Source: Salinivirgaceae bacterium (GTDB lineage Bacteria > Bacteroidota > Bacteroidia > Bacteroidales > SZUA-534). From it: a DNA stretch of 64,000 bases. How positions within the stretch are numbered: position 1 is the first letter of the stretch; every line of letters begins with the position of its first letter. Shown here in pieces: positions 2,023-56,379 of this stretch. The position numbers were made by a program, and so were the translations under genes. The notes beneath the pieces are model-generated. The model ran no database searches, was not told where the DNA came from, and saw only the letters and a list, made by a program, of their open reading frames with translations. The DNA lies in assembly GCA_017557785.1 (NCBI GenBank), contig JAFYYA010000050.1, forward strand, positions 32,281-96,280. The letters run 5' to 3'.

Positions 2023-2160
2023 TGAGTTGAAAGTTTAAAAGTTATAAGTTTAAAGAGTTGAAACGCTTCGCTGTTTAACAGGTTTAATCACTATTCAAAA
2101 ATCAAAAATCGAAAATTAAAATCTGCGTAAATCCGTTAAATCTGTGTCATCTGCGTTCCT
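2023..2160. repeat. Composite intergenic tandem micro-repeat block (AAGTTTA-type, AAAAATC heptamers, ATCTGCGTA nonamers)
   Basis: agttgaa agtttaa aagttat aagttta...; aaaaatc aaaaatc gaaaatt; atctgcgta aatccgtta aatctgtgt catctgcgt. Confidence 0.8.
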
Positions 2161-2169
2161 TAATACACT

Positions 2170-3387
2170 CTATTCAAACAGCCCCAAATCAACATACTCG
2201 CCCAGAGCCTTGTGACCGTTGGCGTTGGGGTGCAGGTTGTCGTTGTCGTGCAGATTGGGGTTCATTACGGTGGTGTCCGAATCGCTGCAAATGGCTTTCT
2301 CAAAGTCGATTACGGCGTCGAACTTGCCGCAAGTGCGAATCCAGTTGTTTACGGCCAGACGGCACTCTTCCTTCTCGGGAGAGCCGTAGAAGCACTCTTT
2401 GAACGGCGTTACGGTTGCGCCGTAAATCTTCAGCCCGTGAGTGTGTGCCGAGTCAATCATTTTCGAATAGGCATCAATCAGTTCTTTTTCGGTCACGGCC
2501 GGATTTGGCGAGTAGCCCATATCGTTAACGCCTTCAAACAGAATAACATACTTAACGCCGGGCTGCTCAATCACGTCGCGATTGAAGCGCACCGAAGCGT
2601 TGGGGCCCAGTCCGCCGCGAATGACGCAGTTGCCGCCAATGCCCATATTGAGCACTGAAAGTTTGCTTGTGGCAGGATTGGCCAGCAGGCGCTCCGAGAA
2701 GACGTCGGTCCAGCGGTTCACCTTGTTGGTTGTCGAGCCGCGGCCGTCGGTAATTGAGTTGCCAACAATGGCAATGGCAGCTGTCGGTTCGTCGGCAACA
2801 ACGTCGAGGCGCTCAATGGTGTACCAGTGGTCGGTTGTGACGGCATCGGCAAAATCGGTGTTATTCAATTCGTTACCTGTCAGGATGTACGATGTTGTGC
2901 GTGACCCCGGATGGCCGGTGATGTCGCTTGGCACAAAGGTGTAGGCGATGGTCACAGCCACGTCCATACGCGGTGTCAGCGCAAACGGCAGCGCGTCGGA
3001 AATCACCGACTGGCCTTTTTCAATATCAATGGCCTGCTTTCCGCCAAATAGCACGTTCACGGCCTTTGCGGCGTCAATCTTGCTGCCTTCGAGGGCGGGA
3101 GCGAGGCTTACGGCGGCAATCTTCAGCACATCGTTGCCGAACTCGTTCGAGAGTTTCAGGCGCACGGTCTCGCCGCCGATTGACACGCGGATTTTCTGAC
3201 GAATAGTGTTTCCGCTGATTCCTGGCTCGGGCGGGCAGTTGTGCGGCTCGGTGAGTTGCACGGCAGTGCCCCAGGTTCCAACCCATCGCTGATTGTCAGC
3301 CTGTTTCACTGTTGATGATTGGCACGAAGTGCCCAAAATGGCGGCTGCCACAAGGCAGCAACTGATGAATTTGTTTAGTGATTTCAT
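2170..3387 (-). CDS. SGNH/GDSL hydrolase lipoprotein (putative carbohydrate esterase)
   Basis: Lipobox LGTSC; GNSITDG block I, GIGGN block II, EGVND block III, DNLHPN block V. Confidence 0.9.
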   Translation of the reverse strand: MKSLNKFISCCLVAAAILGTSCQSSTVKQADNQRWVGTWGTAVQLTEPHNCPPEPGISGNTIRQKIRVSIGGETVRLKLSNEFGNDVLKIAAVSLAPALEGSKIDAAKAVNVLFGGKQAIDIEKGQSVISDALPFALTPRMDVAVTIAYTFVPSDITGHPGSRTTSYILTGNELNNTDFADAVTTDHWYTIERLDVVADEPTAAIAIVGNSITDGRGSTTNKVNRWTDVFSERLLANPATSKLSVLNMGIGGNCVIRGGLGPNASVRFNRDVIEQPGVKYVILFEGVNDMGYSPNPAVTEKELIDAYSKMIDSAHTHGLKIYGATVTPFKECFYGSPEKEECRLAVNNWIRTCGKFDAVIDFEKAICSDSDTTVMNPNLHDNDNLHPNANGHKALGEYVDLGLFE

Positions 3388-3589
3388 TTTTGTAAAAATT
3401 TGTGCGTAATAATAATAAATGTATGTGATTGGTAATAAGTTTTAGGGGAAAACTTGCAAAGGAATGCTATTGTAAATCTATTGACGATTGATAATCAAAG
3501 AGTATTGTAAAATATGCTGCGATGAACTATTGCTCAAAATTTTGATTGCCAATGGTAAAGATTTTTTTTGGAAAGGCGAGATTATGGCT

Positions 3590-3597
3590 TATTTTTG
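3590..3597 (+). promoter_or_regulatory. Bacteroidota sigma-A -7 box for tRNA-Arg
   Basis: TATTTTTG (TAnnTTTG) 20 bp upstream of tRNA; TTTG at 3567-3570 as -33 element. Confidence 0.7.
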
Positions 3598-3617
3598 CGC
3601 CCGCAAAAGTAAATGAT

Positions 3618-3694
3618 GGTTCGGTAGCTCAGCTGGATAGAGCAACAGCCTTCTAAGCTGTGGGTCTTGGGTTCGAATCCCAACCGAATCACCA
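3618..3694 (+). tRNA. tRNA-Arg (anticodon TCT), CCA encoded
   Basis: Acceptor GGTTCGG/CCGAATC, anticodon arm ACAGC-CTTCTAA-GCTGT, T-loop TTCGAAT. Confidence 0.97.
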
Positions 3695-3696
3695 AA

Positions 3697-3732
3697 AAAA
3701 ACTCTCAAAGCCATTGACTTTGAGAGTTTTTC
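3697..3732. terminator. Bidirectional intrinsic terminator between tRNA-Arg and RND gene
   Basis: AAAAACTCTCAAAG-ccattga-CTTTGAGAGTTTTT. Confidence 0.85.
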
Positions 3733-3751
3733 TGTTTTATAAAAACATTGT

Positions 3752-6700
3752 TTATTTATAGTTTCCCGTTATCACCAAATACTTTGCCGCAGTAATCTGA
3801 TAGTTGCAGTTGGCTTCGGTCAGATTGTCTTTGGCTTGCTGGTAAACGGCTTGTGCCTCAAGTAAATCCGATATTCCGATGACGCCCGCCTGATAGTTGT
3901 TCTGGCTCACGGTCAGGTTCTCCTGTGCCTGGTCGACGGATTTTTGCGAGACTGAAATCTGGAAATCGTTCACGCTCAATTCATCGGTCATTTGGCGGAT
4001 CTGCAGGTTCATCAGTTCGGTTTTTTCGCTCAGTTGCATACGCGCCTGCTCAAGTTTCACGTTCTGCTGCTTGATTTTGTGGCTGCCGCCCCACCAGTCG
4101 GTGAGCGGAATGGTCACGGTGAGCATTCCCAGGGCGTTGGTCGAGCGGTTGTCCATCATATCGAGCCAGTAGCCCGCGCCAGCCACGGCCACCTGCGGCA
4201 TATACTCGCCGCGAATCATCTTCTTCTGCAACTCCTGCGCCTCCACGGCTTTGTTCAGCAGTTGGTACTCCTTGCGGCCTTCAACCAACTCCTCGGTTGT
4301 CGATTGGCTGACCTCCACAAGGCGGTCGAAATGGGCGGGCTCGAACTCAATGCTGTCGGTGTAAGGAATGCCAACGTGCTGACAGATAGCGCGTTTGGTG
4401 AGTTCAATGCCATTCTGAACCTTGCGGTAGTTGGTCTCCAACTCGTTCTGCTTCAACTGCACTTTCAGCAGGTCGTTGCGCTGCGCCAGGCCAGCCTCCA
4501 CGTAGTTGTTCACGTCGCGGTATAGCGTGTCGAGCATATTCTTGTACTCTTGCACCGTCTTGCCCTTCTCAATGAGCGACTGCAGCGTCCAGTAGAGTTC
4601 CTCGGTGCGAATCATCACCTCGTCAACGGCCATATCTTTCTTGTAATGGCTCACATCCTCGGCCAATGCAGCCAGTTTGTTGCCGTTGTGGATTCGGCCA
4701 CCGGCGTAGAGCGGCATTGCAACCGTCAGGGCGGCAGTGTTCATATAGTCCAGACTGTTCTTTTTATCTTCGATAATTTCTTGAATGATAGGTAGAAACT
4801 CCGACATTGTACCCATTATCGACTGCATTCCCTGCATCTTTGTCGAGAGTTCCGAAATCTGCTGCAGTTTGGCTGCGGCTTCGGCGTTGCCGGCCATTGC
4901 GGCTTGTTGCAGTTGTTCAATTTGGCCCGAAGCCTGCATCTGCTGCAGTTGTGCGGCTTGCTCCATCATGCCGTTGTAGGTGGGACTCGACGAGAGCATA
5001 TTGTCCGTCGACATATCCATATCGATTAGCGGATTAACCGATTTCATTGCCACGGCGGCTGCGCTCACAGTTGGGAAGTGCTTTGTGAAAGCCTCTTTTT
5101 TCTGCTGTTCGGCTGCTTCAATCTCCAAATCCGACTGCTTTATCTGTTGGTTGTTGAGCAGTGCGGCGTGTTTCAGCGAGTCAAGGCTAATCGGCTGTGC
5201 TTCAGCACGATTGGCAATCAACGCCGAAGCGCCGACGAGCAACACCACAACACCGAATTTGGCGAATTTCGGGTGGTAAGGAACCGACCACATATCAGGT
5301 TTCTTCAATTTATCATCGTACGAAACATCGTACAGAATCGGCAGAATGAAGAGTGCCAGCACCATTGATACGAGCAGGCCGAAGCAGATGACCGTTCCAA
5401 GCGGGCCCCACAGCGGTGAGCGGCTGATAATCATTGGCACAACGCCCATTGCGGCCGCAGCCGATGTCAGGAAGATTGGGCGCATACGGCGTTTGCCAGC
5501 GGCAATGGCGGCTTCGCGCACTGTAAGTTTCTCTTTGTCACGCAGTTCACGGGCGTAGTCGATTAGAATGATACCATTACGGACAATCATTCCGCAAAGA
5601 CTTGTGATGCCCACAAAAGCAGTGATACTGAACGGATAACCCATTAGTTTCAAACCGATTACGGCGCCAGGGATGGTCATCAGCATACCCGACATGATGA
5701 GCAGCACAACTTTGAATTTCTTGAATTGGAACAGCAACACGAAGAAAATCAGTATAATGCTCAGTCCCAATGCTATACCCATCGGCACAAACACTTCTTC
5801 GGTGCCTTCGTAGTCGCCGCCGTAGCTGATTGACGTTCCCACCGGCAGGTCGAGTGCGGCAATCTGCGGCATCATCTCGTTCAGAATGTTCGAAGCCACG
5901 TAGCCCGGCTTCTCGTCGATGACGATAGTGAGTGTGGGCACGCCGTTGCGGTGAACCACAGTGCCTTCGTTCCATTCAGGCCGCAGCGTGGCAATCGAGC
6001 GCAAGGGCACGGTTGTGAATGTCTTGGGCGACATAATGTATTTATTTTCAAGCGATTCGATGCCGTCAGTCTCGCCTTCGTTTTTCATTGTCAGCTCAAC
6101 GTCAACAGGATAGTCGCCTTCCCAGATGGTGGTGAGCGGCAGACTGTTGAATCCGGCCAGCAACGATGTGGCAATCAGGCTCTTGGATATGCCCATGCGG
6201 TTGGCTTTGTCGCGGTCAACATCGATGCGGACATTCTGTTGCATTTGGTCCCAGTCGGTGCGGGCCCAGCCGATGCCGTCAGTGCGGTTTACAATCTCAA
6301 ATATCTGTTTTTCAACCTTATGAATATCGTTTATCGAGTCAGATGATATGCGGATCTCGATTGGCGATGATGTGAACTGCATTGCCAGAATCTTCCACTT
6401 CACGTGTGCTTCGGCAAAACGGTCGGAATAGGTTGTCTCATAATCTCTTACGATGTCTTTTGTGGCCTGATTCGACACGGTGTTCACCAGCAGCTGACCG
6501 AAATTCGGCGCCGGCATTTTGGGCGCGTAAACAGTGTGGAATCGCGGCGAGCTTGTGCCGATGAAACTTGTGACATTGGTAACACGGCTGTCGTTAAGTA
6601 ACAGTTTTTCAACACTATCCACAACAACTTCGGTCTGCTTGAGCGACGAGCCGGTTGGCAGGTAAATCTCAACGGCAAACTGATTTCGTTCCATCTTCGG

Positions 6701-8374
6701 GAACAGCTCTTGGTCGATGGTGGTGAAGCCCCATAAAGACACACCGATTATCGCCAACGTGGCTAAAATCATCAGTCCGCGGTGTTTGAACGAACGTTCG
6801 AGCAGACGGTCGTAAACGCCTTGCATTACATCAAGGAACGAACGGCGCTGCTTCGTTTCGTCTTCATTTTCAGAGTGTTTCTTCAATCCTTTCTTAATGA
6901 ATACGAAATTCAGATATGGCACCATCAGTAGGGCCACAATCACCGAAATGACAAGCGCGATGGCTACCACTGTCGGTATGATTTCAAGGAATTCGCCGGC
7001 CGAGCCCGGAATCATGAAGCCCAGCGGCACATAAACGCAGATGATGGCGATGGTGGCCACAATCACCGAGCCGCTCAGCTCTTTGGCGCTCTTGATGGCC
7101 GAGTGCCATGGCGACAGACCATGGTCAATCATCTCTACGTGGTTGTCAATCACCACAATAGAGTTGTCTACAATCATGCCTAAAACCAAAATCAGCGATG
7201 CCAGTGACACCATTTCGAGCGTGATGCCGCAGAAATAGAGCACCGCCAGTGTTATCAGCACCGATATGGGCACTGTGATGCCGGCCACCGAAGCCACACG
7301 CAGCGGTAGAAGCAGCATTGTTACGCAGATGACGCAGACAATGGCTATCAGAAACTCGCGCATGAAGTCGTTCACCGACTCTTTCACGTATTTCGGCAGT
7401 TCCGAAATCTTCTCAACGTCAATTCCGTCAGGCAGTTGCGCTTTGAAAGTCTCGATGGCTTTGTCCACAGCTTCGCCGTACTCAACAATGTTGTTGCCGT
7501 TCTGCATCTCGAGCGAGAGCAGAATGGTCTTGCGGCCGTTTTGCTTGATATAGCTGTCTGGGTCTTCGTAGCGGCGCTCAATGGTGGCTATATCTTTGAG
7601 TCTCACCACATTGCCGTCGGGGTCAGAATAGACAATCTGCTCGGCAAGGTCTTTTTCCGACTCGAAATTCTCGCCAAAATGCATGTTGAGCTGCGTCTCG
7701 CCGTCGTCGATGTTGCCGGCATAACCCACAAGACCGTTGGCTTGGAACGCACTCAACAGCGATAACGATTTGATATTGTACTCGTTAAGCTTGTCGGGGT
7801 CGACGTTCACAAAAATCTTCTCTTTCTGCAATCCCACGTGCTTAACCTTTGATGTGGCGGGGATTTTGCGTACTTCGGCTTCAAGTTTTTTCAACTGAAG
7901 CTCAAGGTCTTTATAGGTGTGGTTATCGCTCGAAAGTGTTATCAATAAGGCAGATGTGTCGCCGAAATCAGAATTGGCGAAGAGCATCAGCACCCCCGAC
8001 GGCAACGTGGACTTCAGTTGGTCCAATCCGTGCTTGTATTTCGACCAGAACTCATCGGCATCTTTGCACTCAGGGGTCAGTTCCACAAACATATACATCA
8101 TTCCTTCGCGCGAATACGAATAAGTTCCGCTCTTCTTAACTTCCTTATAACCAAAGGTATAATTCTCAACGGCGGTGGTCAGTTGCTCGGCCACCTGTTC
8201 CGACGACGCGCCCGGATAAACGCCCACCACAAGTCCCTGACGGATAGTGAAAACGGGCATCTCATTGCGCGGCATCTTAATCAGCGCCACAATGCCCACA
8301 AGCATTAGCGAGAGCACAATGGTAATAACAACCGTGTTATTGCGCATTGCCCGTTCTATGAATGTTATTTTCAT
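3752..8374 (-). CDS. RND (AcrB/AcrD/AcrF family) efflux permease fused to C-terminal TolC-family outer-membrane factor
   Basis: N-terminal ~1020 aa: YPGAS, GMIVDNSIV, GMIVRNGIILID, RMRPIFLTS; C-terminal ~480 aa OEP repeats (HFPTVS, PLYAGG, YMPQV, YQAGVIGISDLLEAQ). Confidence 0.9.
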   Translation of the reverse strand: MKITFIERAMRNNTVVITIVLSLMLVGIVALIKMPRNEMPVFTIRQGLVVGVYPGASSEQVAEQLTTAVENYTFGYKEVKKSGTYSYSREGMMYMFVELTPECKDADEFWSKYKHGLDQLKSTLPSGVLMLFANSDFGDTSALLITLSSDNHTYKDLELQLKKLEAEVRKIPATSKVKHVGLQKEKIFVNVDPDKLNEYNIKSLSLLSAFQANGLVGYAGNIDDGETQLNMHFGENFESEKDLAEQIVYSDPDGNVVRLKDIATIERRYEDPDSYIKQNGRKTILLSLEMQNGNNIVEYGEAVDKAIETFKAQLPDGIDVEKISELPKYVKESVNDFMREFLIAIVCVICVTMLLLPLRVASVAGITVPISVLITLAVLYFCGITLEMVSLASLILVLGMIVDNSIVVIDNHVEMIDHGLSPWHSAIKSAKELSGSVIVATIAIICVYVPLGFMIPGSAGEFLEIIPTVVAIALVISVIVALLMVPYLNFVFIKKGLKKHSENEDETKQRRSFLDVMQGVYDRLLERSFKHRGLMILATLAIIGVSLWGFTTIDQELFPKMERNQFAVEIYLPTGSSLKQTEVVVDSVEKLLLNDSRVTNVTSFIGTSSPRFHTVYAPKMPAPNFGQLLVNTVSNQATKDIVRDYETTYSDRFAEAHVKWKILAMQFTSSPIEIRISSDSINDIHKVEKQIFEIVNRTDGIGWARTDWDQMQQNVRIDVDRDKANRMGISKSLIATSLLAGFNSLPLTTIWEGDYPVDVELTMKNEGETDGIESLENKYIMSPKTFTTVPLRSIATLRPEWNEGTVVHRNGVPTLTIVIDEKPGYVASNILNEMMPQIAALDLPVGTSISYGGDYEGTEEVFVPMGIALGLSIILIFFVLLFQFKKFKVVLLIMSGMLMTIPGAVIGLKLMGYPFSITAFVGITSLCGMIVRNGIILIDYARELRDKEKLTVREAAIAAGKRRMRPIFLTSAAAAMGVVPMIISRSPLWGPLGTVICFGLLVSMVLALFILPILYDVSYDDKLKKPDMWSVPYHPKFAKFGVVVLLVGASALIANRAEAQPISLDSLKHAALLNNQQIKQSDLEIEAAEQQKKEAFTKHFPTVSAAAVAMKSVNPLIDMDMSTDNMLSSSPTYNGMMEQAAQLQQMQASGQIEQLQQAAMAGNAEAAAKLQQISELSTKMQGMQSIMGTMSEFLPIIQEIIEDKKNSLDYMNTAALTVAMPLYAGGRIHNGNKLAALAEDVSHYKKDMAVDEVMIRTEELYWTLQSLIEKGKTVQEYKNMLDTLYRDVNNYVEAGLAQRNDLLKVQLKQNELETNYRKVQNGIELTKRAICQHVGIPYTDSIEFEPAHFDRLVEVSQSTTEELVEGRKEYQLLNKAVEAQELQKKMIRGEYMPQVAVAGAGYWLDMMDNRSTNALGMLTVTIPLTDWWGGSHKIKQQNVKLEQARMQLSEKTELMNLQIRQMTDELSVNDFQISVSQKSVDQAQENLTVSQNNYQAGVIGISDLLEAQAVYQQAKDNLTEANCNYQITAAKYLVITGNYK

Positions 8375-8376
8375 GA

Positions 8377-9405: not shown

Positions 9406-9418
9406 TTTGTTTTGTTAT

Positions 9419-9449
9419 TTTATGATTTGTGAATTATGATTTCTAATTG
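9419..9449. repeat. Heptamer tandem micro-repeat upstream of MFP start
   Basis: ttatgat ttgtgaa ttatgat ttctaat. Confidence 0.5.
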
Positions 9450-9482
9450 TTTTTATGGGTTCTATTGTCAGTTTTTTTTTAT

Positions 9483-9500
9483 TAATTGAACGTTCGGTAT
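9483..9500. promoter_or_regulatory. Putative TetR operator, copy 2
   Basis: taatTGAACGTTCGGTAT matches 13/14 of the core of the palindrome at 10134-10151. Confidence 0.6.
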
Positions 9501-9519
9501 CTTTGTTCGTTTTTAAAAA

Positions 9520-10113: not shown

Positions 10114-10133
10114 TAATTTATATTAACCGTTAA

Positions 10134-10160
10134 ATACTGAACGGTCGGTATGCAAATGTA
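10134..10160 (-). promoter_or_regulatory. Putative TetR operator palindrome directly downstream of -7 box
   Basis: ATACTGAACGGTCGGTAT imperfect palindrome (10134-10151); TACATTTG on minus strand at 10153-10160. Confidence 0.7.
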
Positions 10161-13761: not shown

Positions 13762-13792
13762 CGGACAGCAGACATCAGACTACAGACAACGG
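13762..13792. repeat. (CAGACTA)n heptamer array just after mltG stop
   Basis: cggacag cagacat cagacta cagacaa cgg. Confidence 0.8.
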
Positions 13793-21677: not shown

Positions 21678-21760
21678 GTCTTCAGTCTTTAGACTACGGA
21701 CTGCAGACAACAGACTTCGGACATCAAAATCAGTTAATCAATTAATCAGTAAATCAATCA
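21678..21760. repeat. (GACTACA)-type heptamer array plus AATCAGTT octamer array at DUF1848 3' end
   Basis: gactacg gactgca gacaaca gacttcg gacatca; aatcagtt aatcaatt aatcagta aatcaatc. Confidence 0.8.
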
Positions 21761-22825
21761 TTTCCCTGTGATTGTCTCTGATTTCCAGCCTGTTTCGCGG
21801 GCGCGGGCAAAGTTGCGAAGGGCGGCTTCCTTGCTTGTGTTGGCGTAGCAATACTCGCATTGGTGCGGACAGGTGTTGTATTCGCCAATGTCTTTGCTCA
21901 TAATGCAGCCGCAGGCGGGGCGTTGGCCTTTGTCGCGGTTGTCTTTCCGCTTGATGGCATACAGATTATCGTTGATAATCAGTGCGTTTTGCGGTAGTGG
22001 TTCTTCGCCGAAAAGCGACACTTCGCGCGTGTGGATTTCCACGCCCAGAAAGCCCATCAGTGCCTTGTCGTTGTGGGCAAAGCGAATCATCAAGTCGTCA
22101 TCAACGCAGCGGTTGTGTTGGATGCCATATTGCTCAATATCAATCTTTTCGCCGCAGGTGGCAAGTTTGTAGTTCCATTGTTGGTTGAGTTCCGAAAGTT
22201 GCCGCGCAAATTGGTCCATCTGTTCAACGGTCCATTCGGAATAGTTCACGCGGTTGCGCTCAAGATTGGTCTTCACCTTTTTATACAAGGCAATGTCGGC
22301 AAAACTGAAAACAAGTTTTTCGGTATAGCCATTGAGTTGATTGCCAATGTGTTCAATTTTCTGCAAGAGCGTTTCGGGCGTGATTTTGTCAGTGAGAATC
22401 AGCGGGTCGAAGCGCCAGACAACGCGGCCTTTGCCCAATGTGTCAACCAGCCTTCGGAAGGTGTCGATACGGTGGGCAAGGGGCGGCACACCTCGCTCAA
22501 GGCCTTCGGTTTCGTAGTCGTTCAGTGTGAATTGAATGTAGCAACCGATATTGCGTTCTTTCAGATAATCAATGTGTTGCAGCAGCGGTTCGGGGTTCTT
22601 CGACCAAAAGACAATGAACCGCGTGTTTTGGTACGACACAAAACTCTGCGCGCCGTTGAACGGGTTGGTCCACGCCGAGTAGCCGACCTTGAGCCTGTGG
22701 AAGAACCAGTCGGCGTAGAAGGCGGGAATGTCGGTCGAGCGGCTTGCTGAGACAATCACAGGCGCCTGCGCTTCAGCCATCGCGCCGTTCTCTCGCTCAA
22801 TTCGTATCTTATTCCATTGTGCCAT
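21758..22825 (-). CDS. DUF1848 domain protein (C-terminal CxxxCxYC Fe-S motif)
   Basis: IVSASRSTDIPAFY, VFWSKNP, WRFDP, CGCIMSKDIGEYNTCPHQCEYCYAN. Confidence 0.9.
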   Translation of the reverse strand: MAQWNKIRIERENGAMAEAQAPVIVSASRSTDIPAFYADWFFHRLKVGYSAWTNPFNGAQSFVSYQNTRFIVFWSKNPEPLLQHIDYLKERNIGCYIQFTLNDYETEGLERGVPPLAHRIDTFRRLVDTLGKGRVVWRFDPLILTDKITPETLLQKIEHIGNQLNGYTEKLVFSFADIALYKKVKTNLERNRVNYSEWTVEQMDQFARQLSELNQQWNYKLATCGEKIDIEQYGIQHNRCVDDDLMIRFAHNDKALMGFLGVEIHTREVSLFGEEPLPQNALIINDNLYAIKRKDNRDKGQRPACGCIMSKDIGEYNTCPHQCEYCYANTSKEAALRNFARARETGWKSETITGK

Positions 22826-22955: not shown

Positions 22956-22999
22956 TTCAGTCATTACAACATTCACACATTCAGTCCTTCAATCCTTCA
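22956..22999. repeat. Octamer tandem array overlapping MATE stop codon
   Basis: ttcagtc attacaac attcacac attcagtc cttcaatc cttcaatt. Confidence 0.75.
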
Positions 23000-24850: not shown

Positions 24851-24899
24851 TGAAGGACTGAAGTCCCGATAGCTATCGGGATGAATAACTGAATAACTG
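24851..24899. repeat. Octamer array containing perfect 18-bp palindrome TCCCGATAGCTATCGGGA (24864-24881)
   Basis: tgaaggac tgaag[tcccgatagctatcggga]tgaataac tgaataac tg. Confidence 0.8.
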
Positions 24900-25363: not shown

Positions 25364-25984
25364 ATGAAGCACGAAATCGACCCGAAAGAGACCAGCCGCG
25401 CGCAGGCTTTCAGCCTTTGGATGACTTCGCCAATGCCGATGGTGACGCTCACTAAAACTTTCGATGTTACTCGCATTCAGAAGGTTAGCCGCAAAAAGCG
25501 GATGAAGTTCAATATGCTTTTGTGTTGGTGCGCGGGCAAGGCTGCGAGCAAGATTGACGAATTCTACACTCTGCCCGAAGGCGGAAAACTCTTCCGCTAC
25601 GACCGTTTGGCCGTCAACGTGATTGTGAACAACGCGCGTGGCGGTATCAATTCGTGCGACATTCCGTACAGCGATGATATAGAGCAGTTTAACGCCGATT
25701 ATATTGCCCGCACGCAGGCGGCAGCCGAATCGTGCGAAAGCAGTTTTGAAGATGGCGCAATGATTGTCGGCACGTCGGCTATGACCGCCACAGAACTTGA
25801 CAGCATTGTCAATCAGTACACCGACAAATTCAGCAACCCAATGTTGATGTGGGGCCGCTACCGCAAGGGATTGTTTAAAACCACTCTGCCCATATCGTTC
25901 CAGTTTCACCACGTTCAGATGGACGGCGGCCAAGCGACACGGTTTCTTGAAGAGTTGCAAAGGGTGATAAACTCAATCAAATGA
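25364..25984 (+). CDS. CatA-like (chloramphenicol acetyltransferase fold) O-acetyltransferase
   Basis: PMLMWGRY, LPISFQFHHVQMDG (HHxxxDG catalytic motif). Confidence 0.8.
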   Translation: MKHEIDPKETSRAQAFSLWMTSPMPMVTLTKTFDVTRIQKVSRKKRMKFNMLLCWCAGKAASKIDEFYTLPEGGKLFRYDRLAVNVIVNNARGGINSCDIPYSDDIEQFNADYIARTQAAAESCESSFEDGAMIVGTSAMTATELDSIVNQYTDKFSNPMLMWGRYRKGLFKTTLPISFQFHHVQMDGGQATRFLEELQRVINSIK

Positions 25985-27065: not shown

Positions 27066-27181
27066 TGATGAACACGAAATTAGTATCACGCTTTTTTTAT
27101 ATGTGCATTTTTCCTCTGATACGGCGCTTCCGAAAAGCCTTACGAGTAGGAAATAATTGTATTACTATATATTGTTTGAAT

Positions 27182-27913
27182 ATGAAAAAGATATTTATAC
27201 TACCATTGTTGCTTTTGCTTTGTGTAACGGCTTATTCTCAAAAAGGAAGTGACATTGTTTATCTGAAAAACGGGAGCAAGATAAAGGGAACAATAATTGA
27301 GCAAGTTCCAAATGTGTCGTTGAAAATACAATCAGGCGAAAATGTTTTTGTATATCAGATGGATGAAGTGGAAAAGATTGTTAAAGAGCAATTACAAACC
27401 AAAAACAATCTTTCGGAACCAGTTGAACTGAAAATAAATTACCCAAACAAGGGCTACCGTGGTTTTGGCGAAATAAACATTGGTGCAGGAAAGGATGGTG
27501 TTGATACAGAGTTTAATCATATTGGTTTTTTATCTGTTCACGGTTATCAATTTAATTCAAAACTATTTGTCGGTGGCGGAGCAGGTTTTTATGATTATTA
27601 TAACGACAATGATGATGTCATTATGATACCATTGTTTGCTGATGTCAGGTTAGATATGGTTCCGTCAGGCATATCACCATTCCTTGATGTGCGATTAGGT
27701 TATTCCATTGGGGATAATGAAGGAGTATATTTTGCACCTTCGTTTGGTGTCCGTTTTTCGAAGTTTCATATATCTGCAGGCTATTTGCTGCAAGGGTATT
27801 ACTATGAAGTAAACCAAAAAACGGCAGCAACAGATGTCGGATTTACCAAATCATTTTTTGCTCGTATAGCAATAGATTGGGGAGCAAGATACAAGTATGT
27901 TAACGTTGATTAA
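27182..27913 (+). CDS. Hypothetical outer-membrane beta-barrel protein, AT-rich
   Basis: Signal peptide; DIVYLKNGSKIKGTI N-domain; HGYQFNSKLFVGGGAG, IPLFADVR, PFLDVRLGY barrel strands. Confidence 0.75.
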   Translation: MKKIFILPLLLLLCVTAYSQKGSDIVYLKNGSKIKGTIIEQVPNVSLKIQSGENVFVYQMDEVEKIVKEQLQTKNNLSEPVELKINYPNKGYRGFGEINIGAGKDGVDTEFNHIGFLSVHGYQFNSKLFVGGGAGFYDYYNDNDDVIMIPLFADVRLDMVPSGISPFLDVRLGYSIGDNEGVYFAPSFGVRFSKFHISAGYLLQGYYYEVNQKTAATDVGFTKSFFARIAIDWGARYKYVNVD

Positions 27914-27933
27914 CAACCTAAAAAGACAGAGAT

Positions 27934-28449
27934 ATGAAAAAGATATTGTTGTTTATGGCATTTGTATTTTGCTTTACAAATGCTTTCGGCAAAAAGAAAA
28001 TCGAAGTCGCTTACGGAAACATTACGGTGTTGAAAGAAGTGGCTACAGCAAAATTCGTGTTAGATTTGGATGAAACCACTTGGGAAGGTAAAGAAAACTA
28101 CAAGCAACGACTTGGGGACAAATTCCCTGAAAGGTTTAAACTTTCTAATGATGCTTTTGTTAGATACTTTAACGCAACGACAAAAGGTTTGAAGATAACC
28201 GATGATGAAGATGCTAAATATACAATAATCTTTAAAGTTGTTGATTTAGAGCAATATATGGGGGCTTATGGTAGGTTTGCCAAATACATACTCGGAACAA
28301 TAGATATTGTTGACAATTCGACGAAAAATGTGGTATGCAGTGTTAATGTAAAACGGCTTGAAGGTAGTGCTGATTACACGGTTCCAGGCAGAATTGAAAA
28401 AGCCTATTCAACTGTCGCTATAAAACTAAATGAATTGAATAAAAAATAG
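27934..28449 (+). CDS. Hypothetical secreted protein, AT-rich
   Basis: 171 aa ORF with signal peptide MKKILLFMAFVFCFTNAFG, co-oriented with upstream gene. Confidence 0.7.
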   Translation: MKKILLFMAFVFCFTNAFGKKKIEVAYGNITVLKEVATAKFVLDLDETTWEGKENYKQRLGDKFPERFKLSNDAFVRYFNATTKGLKITDDEDAKYTIIFKVVDLEQYMGAYGRFAKYILGTIDIVDNSTKNVVCSVNVKRLEGSADYTVPGRIEKAYSTVAIKLNELNKK

Positions 28450-28522: not shown

Positions 28523-28635
28523 ATAATCTGCGCAAATCCATTCAATCTGCGTTATCTGCGTTCCTCAAAACAACTATAATTCTGTGAAACTCTGTGTTCC
28601 CGATAGTTATCGGGGCTGTGTCGTCTGTGCGTGCA
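28523..28635. repeat. ATCTGCG/CTCTGTG nonamer arrays with second copy of the palindrome (TCCCGATAGTTATCGGGG, 28598-28615)
   Basis: aatctgcgc aaatccatt caatctgcg ttatctgcg ttcc; ttctgtgaa actctgtgt[palindrome]ctgtgt cgtctgtg. Confidence 0.8.
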
Positions 28636-29775: not shown

Positions 29776-29777
29776 TT

Positions 29778-29900
29778 CAGTTGTAAGTTTGAAAGTTATA
29801 AGTTATAAGTGGCAAGTTACAAGGCGATGCGTCATTAATATGAAGAACAGACAACAGCACGAACCGTAGTCCGTAGTCTGTTGTCTGTAGTCAGTTGTCA
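29778..29900. repeat. (AAGTTAT)n array before nspC start and (TGTAGTC)n array after CASDH stop
   Basis: cagttgt aagtttg aaagttat aagttat aagtggc aagttac; cgtagtc cgtagtc tgttgtc tgtagtc agttgtc. Confidence 0.85.
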
Positions 29901-29912
29901 AATCTAATCGTC

Positions 29913-31189: not shown

Positions 31190-31316
31190 GGACTTCGGAC
31201 TACAGACTACAGACAACAGTCTTTGAAATGCCTTCTGTGCTTTAATCTTCCGTCACTGTTATTTGTTAATTATTTAATTGTTAAATATTTATTCTGAATT
31301 CTGAATTCAAAATTCT
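31190..31316. repeat. (GACTACA)n array before CASDH start and (TCTGAAT)n array after speB stop
   Basis: gacttcg gactaca gactaca gacaaca; attctga attctga attcaaa attct. Confidence 0.85.
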
Positions 31317-33040: not shown

Positions 33041-33075
33041 CAGTTACAAGTTATAAGTTCTTAAGTTTTAAGTTA
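33041..33075. repeat. (AAGTTAT)-type heptamer array before speE start
   Basis: cagttac aagttat aagttctt aagtttt aagtta. Confidence 0.8.
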
Positions 33076-33879
33076 TTGCTGATTAATGACTATCGTATTC
33101 GACTTCAGTTCCCCTTTAAATAATGAATATCCATTGATTTTATCAAGATATTTCTCATTCCATTCAAAATAGCAAGAATCCAATTGTTCTGCATTTATTT
33201 GGGACCGATTGTAATTAATGTATCGTAAGAAAACATTGCATTTTTTTCCAGAAACCACAAGCGAATCTATTGGAATATAGTCATATACAGTCCCTTTCGC
33301 AGGAATTAGAACTATATCGGAATACTTTAATTTTAATATTGATTCTAATAACTCCTTGCTTTCTGTATTGTGTTTTATTTCCACAGGAAAACAATAATTA
33401 AGCGCAACAGGTGCTTTTAAATAATTCCGCATTTCATATAAATAGGCACTATCAACAAAATTTAAATAATCATTGAATTTTGTGTTATGTCTTATAGAAT
33501 CAATATTATACATTGTGGTTTCTGCATTCAAACGCAAAATGTGTTGTATGTCTGACAGAGAGTTGATGTTTGCATCAGTATTTATTGTTTCGGAAAATGA
33601 AAAATGCTTCTCAAAATATTTAATCTCTTTGTCAGTCACATCATTAGTGATGTCAGTGGATGACTCATCCAACATTATAATGTTTTGATTTTGTGATAGA
33701 TTGGCTATATATATATTGCTGTCGGAAAGATTTTGAATGGATATTTTTATTTGATTCTCATATATTGATGATTCATTTTTAACCAATTCGAGATTAACGA
33801 TAACAGATGTCTTTTCATTATTGCACGAATGCAGTAATGGTATGGAAATCATTATAATAAAGATTTTCACATTCCGCAT
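33073..33879 (-). CDS. Hypothetical AT-rich lipoprotein inserted in the polyamine operon
   Basis: MRNVKIFIIMISIPLLHSC lipobox; markedly lower GC than flanks; no family recognised. Confidence 0.65.
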   Translation of the reverse strand: MRNVKIFIIMISIPLLHSCNNEKTSVIVNLELVKNESSIYENQIKISIQNLSDSNIYIANLSQNQNIIMLDESSTDITNDVTDKEIKYFEKHFSFSETINTDANINSLSDIQHILRLNAETTMYNIDSIRHNTKFNDYLNFVDSAYLYEMRNYLKAPVALNYCFPVEIKHNTESKELLESILKLKYSDIVLIPAKGTVYDYIPIDSLVVSGKKCNVFLRYINYNRSQINAEQLDSCYFEWNEKYLDKINGYSLFKGELKSNTIVINQQ

Positions 33880-33949
33880 TTCAAACGAGTTCTTCCAATT
33901 ATTCAAATTCCATTTCATCTTTAAATGAAAAAAACTTTAAATCAATGAT

Positions 33950-34647: not shown

Positions 34648-34690
34648 CCTAAAACCTAACCAACACCTAACACCCAATACCCAACACCTA
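34648..34690. repeat. (AACACCT)n heptamer array overlapping decarboxylase stop codon
   Basis: aaaacct aacc aacacct aacaccc aataccc aacacct. Confidence 0.85.
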
Positions 34691-45073: not shown

Positions 45074-45146
45074 TCGGACAACAGACAACAGATTTCAGAC
45101 ATTAGATATCAACGACTTGTATCTTGTAACTAATAACTTATAACTC
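45074..45146. repeat. (GACAACA)n array after stop and (AACTTAT)n array before next start
   Basis: cggacaa cagacaa cagattt cagacat tagatat; gacttgt atcttgt aactaat aacttat aact. Confidence 0.85.
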
Positions 45147-46683: not shown

Positions 46684-46695
46684 ATGCGTTGAACG

Positions 46696-50397: not shown

Positions 50398-50497
50398 TAA
50401 GTGAAAAACGTACAATCTAACGGCTTTTCTTGCTCAAATCCTACATTTATCTACTTTTATGGACTTTTTTAAACATCAATTTTAATACGATTTAGCA

Positions 50498-50620
50498 ATG
50501 TTTGGAATTTCCGACCCTGGTATCTGGATTGTCTATCTGCTGTCGATTTTATGCGTGATAGGCTCGATAATTTTTGGCATAAAGTATTGGAACAAAGAAG
50601 ACGATGCCGACAATCTTTAG
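50498..50620 (+). CDS. Small single-TM accessory protein of sodium:solute symporter (40 aa; absent from ORF track)
   Basis: MFGISDPGIWIVYLLSILCVIGSIIFGIKYWNKEDDADNL, 23 bp upstream of SSS gene. Confidence 0.8.
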   Translation: MFGISDPGIWIVYLLSILCVIGSIIFGIKYWNKEDDADNL

Positions 50621-50643
50621 TATTAACTATCAATAATTTATAG

Positions 50644-52242: not shown

Positions 52243-52276
52243 TAAACTAGCAGTCAATCTGCAGTTTACAAATCAT

Positions 52277-52314
52277 TCCAGCAATTCCGAAATTCGGGGT
52301 TGCTGGATTTTTTT
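52277..52314 (+). terminator. Intrinsic terminator
   Basis: TCCAGCAATTCCGA-aat-TCGGGGTTGCTGGA-TTTTTTT. Confidence 0.85.
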
Positions 52315-52408
52315 GTGGAAAAACTCAAATTACAAGCCAATTACAGAATAAATGTTATCTTGCTTTGCTGTGCGATTTGAATTTAATGCATAGCGAAACC
52401 GATTGTCG

Positions 52409-54166
52409 ATGAGTAAATTATATAAATCGATTCCTTACGTTGCTGTGGCGCTTGCCGTGTACGCCTTTTACGCTTTCGCTTATGGCGCGACGTTGCAGTA
52501 CGGCGAGCAATACCAACTTTTTCAGTCCACAACAGGCTATTTTCTCGGCCTGCTTGCCCGTCCAGGCGGATTGGCAATGTATGTCGGTCGGTTTCTGACG
52601 CAGTTTTTCATAATCCCGCTAGTGGGGGCCATATTTATTTCGATGCTGTCGACTGGGATATTTGCTTGCGTGCTGCGTCTTTCAAAATCAAGCAAATACG
52701 GTTGTCAGATGGCGGTTCTGGTGGCCTTGTTGTCGGCTTGCATTTTGCTCGATAGGCAGACGCTGCTCAACGGGCTGGTTTGTATTTCGATAGGATGCTT
52801 TATTTTGCTATTAATCAACTCGATAAAAAACGATAGGTTAGTTGCCGCACTGCTTCCGATAATTGTTTTTGCCACATATTGGATTGCTGACGGAATTCCC
52901 GCGGCGATTGTTGCGGGATACGTGCTTTGCAATTATTTCGTGGCGCAAAAAGATAAATCACTATTGGTCAGTGCTTTAATCTCGCTGCTGATAGTTGTTG
53001 CGTCACCATTTATGGCGCGTCAACTGTTTGGTGTTCAACTAAATGCAACGCGCGCCTTCTTAGGGGCCGATTATTCGCGATATGTGATTTTTCTGCCGAC
53101 GCTGCCAATCGTCATTGGCTGTCTTTTGGCCTTTCTACCGATAATCGACAAATTGTTGAACAGCAACTTTTTGCAAAAGTTTGACAAGCCTTCTCGTCAT
53201 TTTTCTATTTCATCAGTAACCGTCTGGATATTAGCGTTTTCAGTTGTAAGTGCAGTTTTTGCTAGCAATGTTGATTTCAATACCAATCGCAAGTGCGCCA
53301 TTGAATATAATGTGCGGACGCAGAATTGGAAGAAGGCTGTCGAAATTGCTGACAATGAGCAAGAAATTGATGCCTTGACAATGTCGTATATCAATCTGGC
53401 TCTGGCCAAAACCAATCGGCTGGGCGAAAAGATGTTCGCTTACAAGCAGATTGGCTCATTGGGGTTGATTCCTGATTTCGAGACAGATAGCGACGTGTCA
53501 ATGGCTTTGAGCGAGATTTATTACCATTTGGGATTCATCAATTTTGCCGAGCGTTTTGCTTTTGAAGCCGCCAAAGCCAGCCCCGACTACCAGGAAAGCG
53601 TTCGTGCGGTCAAGCGGCTTGCCGAGACGAACATCATCAAAAAGAACTATCCGCTGGCTCGCAAGTATCTTGCAATGCTCGAAAACACAACGTTTTACGC
53701 CAAATGGGCACAAAAATGTCGTCGCGCCATCGACAGCAATCGCACCGATGAAAATGCCGAATGGGCGCAACTGAGAAGTTTTCGGAATGCCAGCGACTAT
53801 TATTACACTGAAAGAGAGAAAGATGCAATGCTGTTTGATAAATTCTCGATGAACCAGAATAATCGGTTGGCCTACGAGTATCTGATGACTTTCTATCTGT
53901 TAAACAAAGATATAGAGCACTTTATGCAATATGCCGAGTATGGCGGGCGTTTCTATGGCATTGCGTTCCCGCGGGCGTTCCGCGAAGCGGCCATTTTCCA
54001 TCTGCGAATGACGAACCCCGAAGCGGTGAAGGATTTCGGCACGGCCGACCGCCTGATGCTCGACAAATTCTACGAGTTCGGCAAAATTTACAACGCCAAC
54101 CATCACGATTCGCGTCTGGCCGCACGTTTTGGCGACACCTATTGGTTTTATCTGTTTAACGAATGA
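52409..54166 (+). CDS. DUF6057-family multi-pass membrane protein with TPR-like C-terminus (copy 2)
   Basis: EQYQLF...PGGLAMYVGRFLTQF, NLALA, AERFAFEA, ARKYL..L, AYEYL, FGDTYWFY. Confidence 0.82.
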   Translation: MSKLYKSIPYVAVALAVYAFYAFAYGATLQYGEQYQLFQSTTGYFLGLLARPGGLAMYVGRFLTQFFIIPLVGAIFISMLSTGIFACVLRLSKSSKYGCQMAVLVALLSACILLDRQTLLNGLVCISIGCFILLLINSIKNDRLVAALLPIIVFATYWIADGIPAAIVAGYVLCNYFVAQKDKSLLVSALISLLIVVASPFMARQLFGVQLNATRAFLGADYSRYVIFLPTLPIVIGCLLAFLPIIDKLLNSNFLQKFDKPSRHFSISSVTVWILAFSVVSAVFASNVDFNTNRKCAIEYNVRTQNWKKAVEIADNEQEIDALTMSYINLALAKTNRLGEKMFAYKQIGSLGLIPDFETDSDVSMALSEIYYHLGFINFAERFAFEAAKASPDYQESVRAVKRLAETNIIKKNYPLARKYLAMLENTTFYAKWAQKCRRAIDSNRTDENAEWAQLRSFRNASDYYYTEREKDAMLFDKFSMNQNNRLAYEYLMTFYLLNKDIEHFMQYAEYGGRFYGIAFPRAFREAAIFHLRMTNPEAVKDFGTADRLMLDKFYEFGKIYNANHHDSRLAARFGDTYWFYLFNE

Positions 54167-55632
54167 TGGCAATGAGAATAAATATTATAATCGTTTTATT
54201 GTCAATGTTTTGTGCAGCGTGCAACGAACGAGTTGACCTTTCGGCAACTTCCGATGCGCTGCCGCCCGTAACGCCCGATTATGCGTCGGTGACAGTGCCT
54301 GTAAACATTGCCCCGCTTAACATTATGGCTGACGGCAAGGCCGAAAAAATCGACGTGACTATTTGTTCGTCAGACGGGAAAGCGGTTCTTCACTCGCAAT
54401 CGGCACAAGCCACAAGTTTCAACATTGCCGAATGGCATCGTCTGCTTGCCGAAAATATCGGTAAATCAATCGTTTACAAAGTAGCGATAAAAAAGAATGG
54501 CAAATGGACGCAATACAAACCTTTTGATATTTTTGTCAGCCCCGACAGTATCGATTACGGATTGGTTTACAGGCTGATAGCGCCTGGTTACGAGACATTT
54601 GCAAGTATGGGCATCTATGAGCGCAATCTCTCAAACTTCGAGCAACGCACGATTGTTGAGAACAACTTGCTGCAGAACAACTGCGTCAACTGCCACTCGT
54701 TTTGCCAATGGAAAACCGACAAGATGAGCCTGCACGTCCGCGGTTCGCACGGCTGCACAATAATTCTGACGGACAATCAGTTGCAAGTTTATAACACCCG
54801 AACCGACAGCACTCGCGGCAACTGCGTTTATCCGTCGTGGCACCCTGACGGCCGCCATATTGCCTATTCGGTGAACGAAACCCGACAGATTTTCCACGCC
54901 GCCAATCCTAAGCGCATCGAAGTCATCGACCGCTGGTCGGATGTGGTTGTGCTTGATACCAAGACAAATACGCTCTCGAGTTCGCCGCTTTTGATGTCGA
55001 AAGACAAATTTGAGACGTTCCCTTATTTTTCACCCGACGGCAAATGGCTCTATTTCTGCAGCGCAAAAGCCGTTGATATGGACACCGCGCCCCAAAGCGT
55101 GCATTACGACCTTTGCCGCATTGCTTTCGATAGCGAATTGGGTACGTTGGGCAATCAGGTAGATACGATTGTAAACGCTTCATCCATCGGCAAAAGCGTT
55201 TCGTTTCCGCGTCCGTCGCCCGATGGCAGGTTTGTGGCCTACACGCTTTCCGATTACGGGCAATTCTCAATCTGGCATCCCGAGTCTGACGTTTGGCTGC
55301 TCAATCTTTCCGATGGCACAACCCGCCGTCTCGACAACCTGAACAGCAATGATGTCGACAGTTATCATAGTTGGTCGTCTAACGGACGATGGATGGTGGT
55401 TTCGAGCCGCCGCGAGAACGGGTTGTTTACGCAGCCGTATTTTGCCCATATCGACACCTGCGGCAATGCAACAAAGGCTTTCCGTCTGCCGCTTCGTTCG
55501 CCCGCCGACTTCGACGAGATGTTCTACTCATTCAACGTTCCTGAATTTATTGCCGAGCCCATTCGGTTGAATGTCAGAGAATTGGAAAAGAAGGTTGAAC
55601 GGCATGATTTGAAGAAATTCACGTTTAAATAA
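54163..55632 (+). CDS. TolB-like/PD40 beta-propeller lipoprotein with CVNCH motif (copy 2)
   Basis: Lipobox CAAC; PDY..VTVPVNIAPLN, YRLIAPGY, CVNCHSF, YPSWHPDG, FPRPSPDG, SYHSWSSNG. Confidence 0.82.
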   Translation: MMAMRINIIIVLLSMFCAACNERVDLSATSDALPPVTPDYASVTVPVNIAPLNIMADGKAEKIDVTICSSDGKAVLHSQSAQATSFNIAEWHRLLAENIGKSIVYKVAIKKNGKWTQYKPFDIFVSPDSIDYGLVYRLIAPGYETFASMGIYERNLSNFEQRTIVENNLLQNNCVNCHSFCQWKTDKMSLHVRGSHGCTIILTDNQLQVYNTRTDSTRGNCVYPSWHPDGRHIAYSVNETRQIFHAANPKRIEVIDRWSDVVVLDTKTNTLSSSPLLMSKDKFETFPYFSPDGKWLYFCSAKAVDMDTAPQSVHYDLCRIAFDSELGTLGNQVDTIVNASSIGKSVSFPRPSPDGRFVAYTLSDYGQFSIWHPESDVWLLNLSDGTTRRLDNLNSNDVDSYHSWSSNGRWMVVSSRRENGLFTQPYFAHIDTCGNATKAFRLPLRSPADFDEMFYSFNVPEFIAEPIRLNVRELEKKVERHDLKKFTFK

Positions 55633-55652
55633 AACGGGCGTAGTGCATTGAA

Positions 55653-56294
55653 TCAACTTCGCCCTTTCAGTGCTTCGTCTTCTTCTGCGGTGTCGTCTTT
55701 CATCAGCGGCAGACTGGCACTTTTGCGGACGGCCCAGATGCGAATCAGAATCACTGACGATGCGCTCAAAATCTCGCACATGGCATTGCCGATGCCAATT
55801 TTTTGGCAAATATAAAAGATGAAACCGCCTAATATGCAGGCAGTTGCGTATACGTCTTTGCGGAAGATGAGCGGCACTTCGTTGATGAGCGTGTCGCGCA
55901 GAATGCCGCCCGCCGCGCCCGTCAGCGTGCCCATGATGATGTTCACCCAAATAGGAAATCCCGCTGCAAGGCTTTTCTCGAATCCCACAACAGTGAACAG
56001 ACCAAGCCCGATGGCATCGAACAGGAACATTGTGGTGTTCATTCGAACCAGTTGCTTGCCGAGAATTATCACCAGCAGAAGTGCAAAACCTGTGACAATC
56101 AGATAAGAAGGCTGTAGCATCCAAAAAGGTGTGACGCCGAGCAGAAGGTCGCGGATGGTGCCGCCGCCCACAGCCGTCACCAAACCGACAACGTAGGCGC
56201 CAAACCAGTCGAATTTCTTCGCTGCCGCCATGCGGATTCCGCTTATCGCGAAAGCGAAAGTTCCGATGTAGTCGAGTATGATGGTGAAAGTCAT
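55653..56294 (-). CDS. TRIC/UPF0126 (YadS-like) membrane protein
   Basis: GTFAFAISG, TAVGGGTIRD, DAIGLGLF, GGILRD, YATA duplicated motifs. Confidence 0.92.
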   Translation of the reverse strand: MTFTIILDYIGTFAFAISGIRMAAAKKFDWFGAYVVGLVTAVGGGTIRDLLLGVTPFWMLQPSYLIVTGFALLLVIILGKQLVRMNTTMFLFDAIGLGLFTVVGFEKSLAAGFPIWVNIIMGTLTGAAGGILRDTLINEVPLIFRKDVYATACILGGFIFYICQKIGIGNAMCEILSASSVILIRIWAVRKSASLPLMKDDTAEEDEALKGRS

Positions 56295-56297
56295 GGA

Positions 56298-56379
56298 AGT
56301 TAGGTGTTGGGGGGTAGGTGTTAGTTAATTACGAATTTTGAATTACGAATTACGACCATTGTCCGTTGTCTGTAGTCTA
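56298..56379. repeat. Three heptamer families in one junction: (TAGGTGT), (AATTACG), (TGTAGTC)
   Basis: taggtgt tgggggg taggtgt; aattacg aattttg aattacg aattacg; attgtc cgttgtc tgtagtc. Confidence 0.85.

Follow-up and report, generated by a model that had tools for sequence, protein, structure and literature searches.

Polar arrays of tandem heptamers have been reported in cyanobacteria, Xanthomonas, Beggiatoaceae and some Bacteroidetes, with no function or origin known for them. Similar arrays are found at gene borders in a 64,000-nt stretch of the genome of a Salinivirgaceae bacterium (the window; positions 32281-96280 of contig C25, JAFYYA010000050.1, in the 3.0 Mb, 153-contig, 47.5% G+C assembly GCA_017557785.1, here G000). 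An original prediction, made from the letters of the window, listed 13 intergenic blocks of degenerate 7-, 8- or 9-nt units and read them as the arms or scars of a cassette system that drops genes between those of operons. In the heterocystous cyanobacteria, the STRR heptamers, reportedly described by Mazel in 1990, lie in non-coding DNA. A further system that bears on the arrays is the 23S rRNA intervening sequence, the stem of which is excised by RNase III.

The GGGAATC repeats of Xanthomonas and a related unit of Nostoc PCC 7120 were studied by Rehm et al. 2015 (PMC4692102). According to the sections of that paper used here, their G strand lies on the coding strand 0-50 bp after stop codons, often overlapping the stop, and on the non-coding strand just before starts; 70-75 inverted pairs were counted, and the repeats are found on transcripts, their function being given as unknown (PMC4692102). 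TAACTGA direct repeats are present in marine Beggiatoaceae, some Cyanobacteria and five Bacteroidetes, as set out in the part of MacGregor 2015 drawn on here (PMC4679880). The PF05635 domain occurs in 23S rRNA intervening sequences (PMC11270868) and resembles the accessory protein Avd of diversity-generating retroelements (PMC10053308), as stated in the excerpts of these two papers that we used.

The 13 blocks of the window appear, on balance, to be ordinary members of a genus-wide population of polar arrays built from units of 7-8 nt, in a few cases 9 nt, which in G000 numbers about 400-480 depending on the periods counted. Arrays were detected with Tandem Repeats Finder (TRF; score of at least 30), and genes were called with our own open reading frame (ORF) and codon-score caller, which gave 2362 genes with approximate starts that make up 91% of the genome. 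The arrays are not equally common in coding sequence. Most of those of period 7 (302 of 376), period 8 (135 of 206), period 14 (77 of 93) and period 16 (34 of 41) are intergenic, while period-9 arrays are mostly coding (only 68 of 276 intergenic); arrays of period 6-18 account for 6.8% of the bases between genes and 0.73% of those within them. Of the period-7 and period-8 arrays assigned to gaps, 364 of 437 lie between co-directional genes, where 65% of the gap length is found. The other kinds of gap are depleted: the divergent ones hold 32 of the 437 in 22% of the length, the convergent ones 31 in 13%. An array is present in 292 of the 934 co-directional gaps of at least 30 nt. Stop codons are overlapped or abutted by 56 of 427 arrays, and 88 of 428 lie within 10 nt of a start codon.

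Scanned genome-wide, the orientation of the arrays relative to the nearest stop or start is not random. On the sense strand, G exceeds C within 15 nt of a stop (91 arrays versus 27), and the reverse holds within 15 nt of a start (G below C in 85 versus 17). Trailers in convergent gaps share the stop-side polarity (23 versus 9). The stop-side half of the arrays has a C content of 0.116 and a G content of 0.205, as against 0.200 and 0.096 in the start-side half, a symmetry like that of a hairpin in that the outgoing strand is G-rich when read from either gene border into the spacer. Leaders without arrays are already poor in G (0.11-0.13 at positions -1 to -20), and therefore the start-side arrays prolong a general leader feature. 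The arrays of G000 comprise 138 exact units, 26 of which occur at five or more loci and 78 only once, with one unit at 24 loci; single-linkage clustering of the units over-merged them and was dropped. Recurrent composite modules, which would be a sign of copy-and-paste, were considered and rejected, as ordered pairs of neighbouring unit types recur no more often than under permutation (2 observed, 0.80 +/- 0.87 in the null).

Arrays turn over far faster than the genes that adjoin them, and whole spacers are replaced between congeneric species with the polarity kept. In ten genomes of the genus, CASDH is 95-99% identical and is flanked on both sides by spacers of unrelated unit families, always G-rich after the stop and G-poor before the start. 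The CASDH-to-nspC spacer of the window is 88% identical to that of genome G003 and 46-53% to those of G004, G013 and G014, with flanking proteins at 91-99%. Similarly, the speB-to-CASDH spacer matches that of G003 at 98% identity and those of G004 and G013 at 41-45%; in G014 it measures 461 nt. Taken together, the array spacers of the window have 41-53% identity to G004, G013 and G014, compared with 86% for an array-free spacer, and spacers of 6-7 nt are unchanged. The copy number of units also varies between close relatives. At one junction of G000 (G000:C129:56172) the stop and the next ATG abut with no spacer at all, whereas the same junction in G003 (G003:C1:196189-196582) measures 394 nt, is almost all arrays with 284 nt in TRF rows and has an internal duplication of about 100 nt. 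Since the same window spacers are 88-98% identical in the independent genome G003 and the enrichment is strong, chance or an assembly artefact can be ruled out as the source of the arrays.

A high density of arrays is a trait of this genus within its order. Five of its genomes have 8-14 period-7 TRF rows per about 40 kb, as against 1-3 in ten genomes from other genera. Of the latter, nine were sampled over 34-40 kb and the tenth (G026) over 10.6 kb only; isolated longer arrays do occur in the other genera. Four RNA-library runs, consulted as assembled contigs that cover a small share of the window, also bear on turnover. In several contigs from related strains the divergence sets in exactly at gene borders, a pattern that agrees with spacer replacement and is silent on RNA ends, contig ends at gene borders and stretches without cover being uninformative in such data.

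Within the window, the blocks themselves proved to be as originally described in most respects. TRF rows of period 7, 8, 9, 14 or 16 fall inside 12 of the 13, and only loose repetition is seen in the remaining one (9419-9449). By our own ORF calls, 12 have an edge no more than 13 nt away from a stop or start codon, and in six the stop codon of the upstream gene lies within the first unit (21758, 22997, 31315, 33073, 34688 and 56377). The exception in placement is block 24851-24899, which lies 69 nt past a 98-amino-acid ORF without a family match. The unit families and the sides on which they stand are also as named, when read in the sense orientation. On the stop side these are GACTACA types after mltG, CASDH, the propeller gene and murB, a GGTGTTA type after the decarboxylase gene, GAATTCA after speB, a ACGCAGAT-type nonamer after the GDSL gene and nspC, and a TGAAGGA type after the MATE gene; on the start side they are TGTAGTC, TAACACC, TCGTAAT and ACTTATA types. 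Gene names were checked against NCBIfam and Pfam, by which the gene originally called TRIC encodes a PF03458 protein and the ORF called ACP-like has no significant family match. The only Rfam matches in the whole window at gathering scores are two tRNAs, and a known RNA family was accordingly rejected as the source of the blocks. In the list of blocks below, z compares the fold of the spacer RNA with that of shuffled sequences and MFE is the minimum free energy.

2023..2160, minus strand: the entire 147-nt spacer from the GDSL/SGNH gene (2170-3387) to the GH43 gene (400-2022), with ACGCAGAT-type nonamers and TTTTYGA heptamers after the stop, the CAGCGAAGCG mini-hairpin motif in the middle and AACTTWT-type units before the start; it folds no better than shuffles (z 0.27).
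9419..9449, minus strand: degenerate, weak ATCATAA-like repetition 13 nt upstream of the start of the RND adaptor gene; the least convincing block, with no TRF row at a score of at least 30.
13762..13792, plus strand: four GACANCA heptamers, 12 nt past the mltG stop (z -0.87).
21678..21760, minus strand: TGATTRAY octamers, the first of which holds the stop of the DUF1848 gene (21758-22825), followed by TGTAGTC-type heptamers (z -1.46).
22956..22999, minus strand: TGAAGGAY/TGAATGT octamers that begin at the TGA stop of the MATE gene (z 0.06).
24851..24899, plus strand: two copies of TGAAGGAC, the 16-nt palindrome CCCGATAGCTATCGGG and two copies of TGAATAAC, downstream of the unassigned 98-amino-acid ORF and a GC-rich hairpin.
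28523..28635, minus strand: the nspC trailer in a convergent gap, with CACAGAC-type units, a CCCGATAnnTATCGGG palindrome and ACGCAGATA nonamers; its z of -3.97 is owed to the small palindromes.
29778..29900, minus strand: the CASDH-to-nspC spacer, with GACTACA-type units after the stop, a short hairpin formed with their complement and ACTTATA-type units before the start (z -3.70 for 29776-29912); the sole block spacer of the window with such an arm-complement hairpin.
31190..31316, minus strand: the speB-to-CASDH spacer, with GAATTCA-type units that include the speB stop, TTAACAA-type units and TGTAGTC-type units 17 nt before the CASDH start (z -1.29).
33041..33075, minus strand: AACTTAW heptamers that fill the 36-nt gap before the speE start, the first unit holding the stop of an AT-rich 281-amino-acid ORF.
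34648..34690, minus strand: GGTGTTR heptamers from the decarboxylase stop onward, followed by a hicBA-like gene pair.
45074..45146, plus strand: the entire 79-nt spacer from the propeller gene to the aminotransferase gene, with GACAACA-type units after the stop and TAACTWA-type units before the start (MFE -4.7 kcal/mol, z +1.01).
56298..56379, minus strand: the entire 82-nt spacer from murB to the PF03458 gene, with GACTACA-type units that include the stop, then TCGTAAT and, before the start, TAACACC units (MFE -3.6 kcal/mol, z +1.71).

Two of the pure-array spacers of the window, the last two in the list, thus fold worse than their shuffles. Genome-wide, array-rich spacers are less structured than array-free ones, with a median z of -1.30 and an MFE per nt of -0.164 (70 sampled of 100) as compared to -2.25 and -0.229 (70 of 307). 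None of the window blocks contains a PF05635 ORF or two complementary arms that close a long stem. The window arrays, being gene-less and mostly non-complementary, seem to behave as unstructured linkers rather than as insertion scars, a view towards which we lean.

Two small motifs recur beside the arrays. The 16-nt palindrome CCCGATAnnTATCGGG is found at 24865-24880 and 28599-28614 of the window and has 21 copies in G000, 20 of them intergenic, with an array within 40 nt in 12 of these 20. Some sister genomes have it in the spacer upstream of CASDH and others lack it there, in what is otherwise the same array, as if it were a tiny mobile hairpin. The CAGCGAAGCG motif with the GCGAAGC mini-hairpin word, found in the window at 2064-2073 in the minus-strand sense, occupies the middle of array blocks. 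Of its 31 copies between genes in G000, 24 are no more than 40 nt from an array, and it recurs in sister-genome spacers. REP-like palindromes built on GTAGAGACG ... CGTCTCTAC occupy about 40 intergenic sites of G000 (for example C25:108417), the half-sites being intergenic in 33 and 42 cases, respectively, and mostly not near arrays.

Outside the window, similar arrays form both complementary arms of small cassettes that encode PF05635, an Avd-like four-helix-bundle protein. G000 has six PF05635 genes, the nearest at C25:126250, about 30 kb beyond the window end, so the original remark that the window holds no four-helix-bundle gene is correct. Each of the six is flanked by genes that run in one direction, with a G-rich array behind the stop of the upstream gene and a complementary C-rich array ahead of the following start, and in whole-spacer RNA folds the arms of all six pair over 22-54 bp. 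The link between inverted heptamer arms and four-helix-bundle genes, which the original prediction had named, therefore holds in this genome. In relatives, complementary G-first arms were found at 10 of 10 evaluable PF05635 loci, three of them from other genera, an eleventh locus being cut off. The single PF13366 (GxxExxY) gene of G000 (C44:5218-5538), also between two co-directional genes, is likewise flanked by an imperfect inverted repeat, but its C-rich arm comes first, the reverse of all PF05635 cassettes. The gaps with complementary arms hold no convincing cargo family besides PF05635, their other ORFs being short and outside the library scan, and a literature search without subscription journals and supplements found no paper that ties PF05635 genes to heptamer arms. 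PF05635 genes are present in 29 of 31 genomes at 0-16 per genome, and no correlation between their copy number and array density is visible across the order.

The PF05635 cassettes are present or absent between the stop and start of neighbouring operon genes. At a transporter-uxaC-like junction outside the window, compared in 15 genomes of the genus, the spacer is 5-22 nt long and array-free in six genomes, holds a cassette with GGTRTTG arms in two and one with GGCAYTA arms in four; the two cassette types are unrelated, and their interiors look far more diverged than the flanking genes, as judged by eye from the alignment. Another three genomes have a 228-nt gene-less insert with a short G-arm remnant of the G000 cassette type. 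At a second junction, the 15 genomes have cassettes of at least four types, blocks of arrays alone that measure 119-251 nt, and spacers of 36 nt. In this respect, the filled and empty alleles that a cassette system calls for exist for PF05635 cassettes, at a junction beyond the window.

The explanation that we favour, with moderate confidence, is that polar arrays stem from slippage and spacer exchange and are kept as linkers of operon mRNA, with complementary pairs serving as the stems of cassettes. Arrays would arise by slippage of units together with wholesale exchange of spacers, and would be retained in operon mRNA as tolerated or useful elements. The G-poor half may provide a weakly structured leader for the next gene, one that would be unable to contain ATG, GTG or TTG, which fits translation initiation without Shine-Dalgarno pairing in Bacteroidia. 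There, initiation depends on mRNA structure and upstream bases and not on such pairing, according to the portions of two reports used here (PMC6847099, PMC7797042). The C-poor half would be rich in stop triplets. Where both halves are complementary, they would form a long stem around the cassette gene, which RNase III could cut by analogy with 23S rRNA intervening sequences.

Several observations weigh against this explanation. Arrays in divergent gaps have no polarity (15 versus 15), and the C-poverty after stops is not accounted for by array-free trailers (C 0.17, G 0.17-0.19). Among 146 stop-side arrays, 73 have a stop in each of the three frames, as compared to 59.2 +/- 4.8 in composition-matched shuffles; because this excess is only modest, an all-frame stop pad was rejected as the cause of the C-poor trailers. 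That 26 units occur at five or more loci points to copying or selection of particular words and not to free slippage. As PF05635 is equally common in genera with few solo arrays, the cassette link leaves the array-richness of this genus unexplained. Lastly, the RNA libraries give a single hint, a contig that spans the CASDH-nspC spacer and extends 20 nt into nspC, for which DNA carry-over is possible.

The original prediction would make every array an arm of a mobile cassette placed between the genes of operons, or what is left of such an arm, and the solo arrays of the window would then be scars of lost or exchanged cargo. We regard this as doubtful, although with a real chance of being right. 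Cassette arms and solo arrays do share a common polarity and unit families (GGTGTTR/YAACACC, TGAAGGA/TCCTTCA, TTGTTAA and GGCATTA). As the empty transporter-uxaC-like allele is entirely array-free, the arms there arrived with the insert, and between the two cassette types at this junction the arms differ jointly with complementarity kept and the interior, by eye, is more diverged than the flanks. The mix of cassette types, array-only blocks and 36-nt spacers at the second junction and the G-arm remnant in the 228-nt insert also favour it, as does the finding that the outer arms around the hicBA-like pair of the window occur in empty alleles too. However, arm pairs are not the general rule. Complementary halves (score of at least 12) are found in 27 of 276 array-bearing gaps, a minority even if above the 4.0% of permuted pairs, and there are six PF05635 genes to 408 period-7/8 arrays. 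Sharing of 11-mers between both gaps that flank a gene was inverted in 35 and direct in 74 of 1687 cases, with about 1.7% expected at random for each, and gene-enclosing inverted arm pairs were accordingly rejected as a general rule. With inverted sharing at background, the case of CASDH, which has TGTAGTC before and GACTACA after it, is not special. The absence of recurring ordered unit pairs above permutation is a further point against the original prediction.

Variation in gene content argues the same way. When G000 was compared with 467 kb of G003, 24 of 141 conserved junctions differed by at least 300 nt, and such indels showed no enrichment where arrays are present (9 of 36 junctions whose shorter allele has arrays versus 15 of 105 others, p = 0.20; 9 of 34 versus 9 of 39 where the shorter allele is at least 60 nt), so the expected variation is not specific to array junctions. 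At the MATE-DUF1848-GH8 junctions, what relatives have in addition are accessory genes of an ordinary kind (GH95, FMN reductase, BspA-type LRR), and these lack paired arms. DUF1848, which had been named as cargo, is conserved in all four relatives examined and is therefore not cargo. The hicBA-like pair at the decarboxylase-speE junction is present in G000 and G013 and absent from G003 and G004, but it lies between non-complementary arms that are also in the empty alleles, as a mosaic with breakpoints at array borders, and it has no Pfam match at E <= 0.001 (HicA only at E = 0.2). A related proposal centres on the cassette itself. A PF05635 gene with its two complementary array arms might be a mobile cassette that lands exactly between operon stop and start, brings its own trailer and leader and is cut from the mRNA at the arm stem, with solo arrays as its decayed or recombined arms. 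Taken as a whole this is also rather unlikely; if true, it would give the 35-year-old puzzle of bacterial heptamer repeats a concrete source.

The arrays could instead be a neutral by-product, with polymerase slippage that favours 7-8 nt units filling unconstrained spacers and strand-biased mutation or repair at gene ends producing the polarity, without any role in RNA. Among long simple repeats, those of 7 nt are the most frequent in many prokaryotes, and slippage has been proposed for them (Mrazek 2007, as summarised in the part of PMC4679880 used here), the copy number differs between close relatives, and the large number of exact units, most of them found once, is as such a process would leave it. 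Yet the sign of the polarity flips with position inside a single spacer and is the same after stops in convergent gaps, the arrays avoid divergent gaps and are under-represented in convergent ones, and their density is a trait of one genus within the order; we therefore judge a purely neutral origin unlikely. Far less probable is that the arrays are RNA or single-stranded DNA binding sites of a dedicated repeat-binding protein such as S1, Csp or CsrA, as was proposed for the TAACTGA repeats. The arrays that directly precede start codons would suit a binder, and post-transcriptional regulators have been put forward for such repeats in the part of MacGregor 2015 consulted (PMC4679880). Nonetheless, 138 different exact units in one genome are not what a binder would be expected to leave, and since sister species swap whole spacers for unrelated units with the genes unchanged, one sequence-specific binder cannot fit.

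Other genes of the window touch this subject less directly. A CatA-like O-acetyltransferase gene (25364-25984; NF040637, E 1.8e-97) has array-free spacers of 2 nt and 7 nt. A tblastn search of the corresponding syntenic regions in G003, G004, G013 and G014 found no match to it, and about 31 nt separates its neighbours there. AT-rich ORFs of 281, 171 and 281 amino acids without a family match (27068-28449 and 33073-33918) look like strain-specific insertions, with no counterpart in the syntenic stretches of the four relatives save one weak 38% match in G003. In a 1540-amino-acid ORF (3752-8374), an RND efflux permease (residues about 5-1020) is followed by a TolC-family outer-membrane factor (about 1204-1538); two parts that are mostly encoded by separate genes appear to be fused here.

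The genus offers a natural experiment on such repeats. About one third of its operon junctions bear arrays. The arrays at a given junction are unrelated between sister species whose proteins share 95-99% identity, and a single junction may be found empty, with arrays alone or with a PF05635 cassette. Contrasts of this kind make testable both whether arrays tune translation or mRNA processing in a phylum without Shine-Dalgarno pairing and whether PF05635 cassettes are mobile.

The window arrays are an example of a published, unexplained class of repeats and, as a finding in this window, ordinary. Like the repeats of Rehm et al. 2015, they are tandem units of about 7 nt, mostly intergenic, and follow the same rule of polarity and placement at stops and starts in so far as the consulted sections define it. 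The Rehm repeats are described in those sections as one unit family with quadruplex-capable G-runs, in contrast to the many exact units here, of which the window types GACTACA, ACTTATA and AATTACG have no G-runs; 11 of the 12 commonest exact units of G000 have no run of three G, as judged by reading the units and not by quadruplex prediction, the exception being GGGTGTT at 11 loci. Nearby inverted pairs are frequent in the Rehm set and are present here in a minority of gaps. Repeat-bearing regions are reported there as more conserved than controls, whereas here spacers are replaced between sister species. The TAACTGA repeats, in the account used (PMC4679880), are likewise short heptamer arrays a few nt before starts in a 'forward' orientation, with a sporadic phylogenetic spread, relatives with identical gene neighbours that lack them and other heptamers in the same spacers in Gramella and Aequorivita. 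They differ in being a single, mostly start-side unit, with no stop-side rule or cassette genes described in that account; TAACTGA is not among the commonest units of G000 and is seen in the window only inside the octamer array after a stop (21728-21758). The long simple sequence repeats of Mrazek 2007, as summarised in the same account (PMC4679880), are similar to ours in that tandem heptamer families occur in the non-coding DNA of particular lineages. Finally, the cassettes outside the window resemble 23S rRNA intervening sequences in that a small PF05635 gene stands between complementary arms, which in predicted folds pair as a long stem; they differ in that the host is an operon spacer between protein genes and the arms are tandem heptamer arrays.

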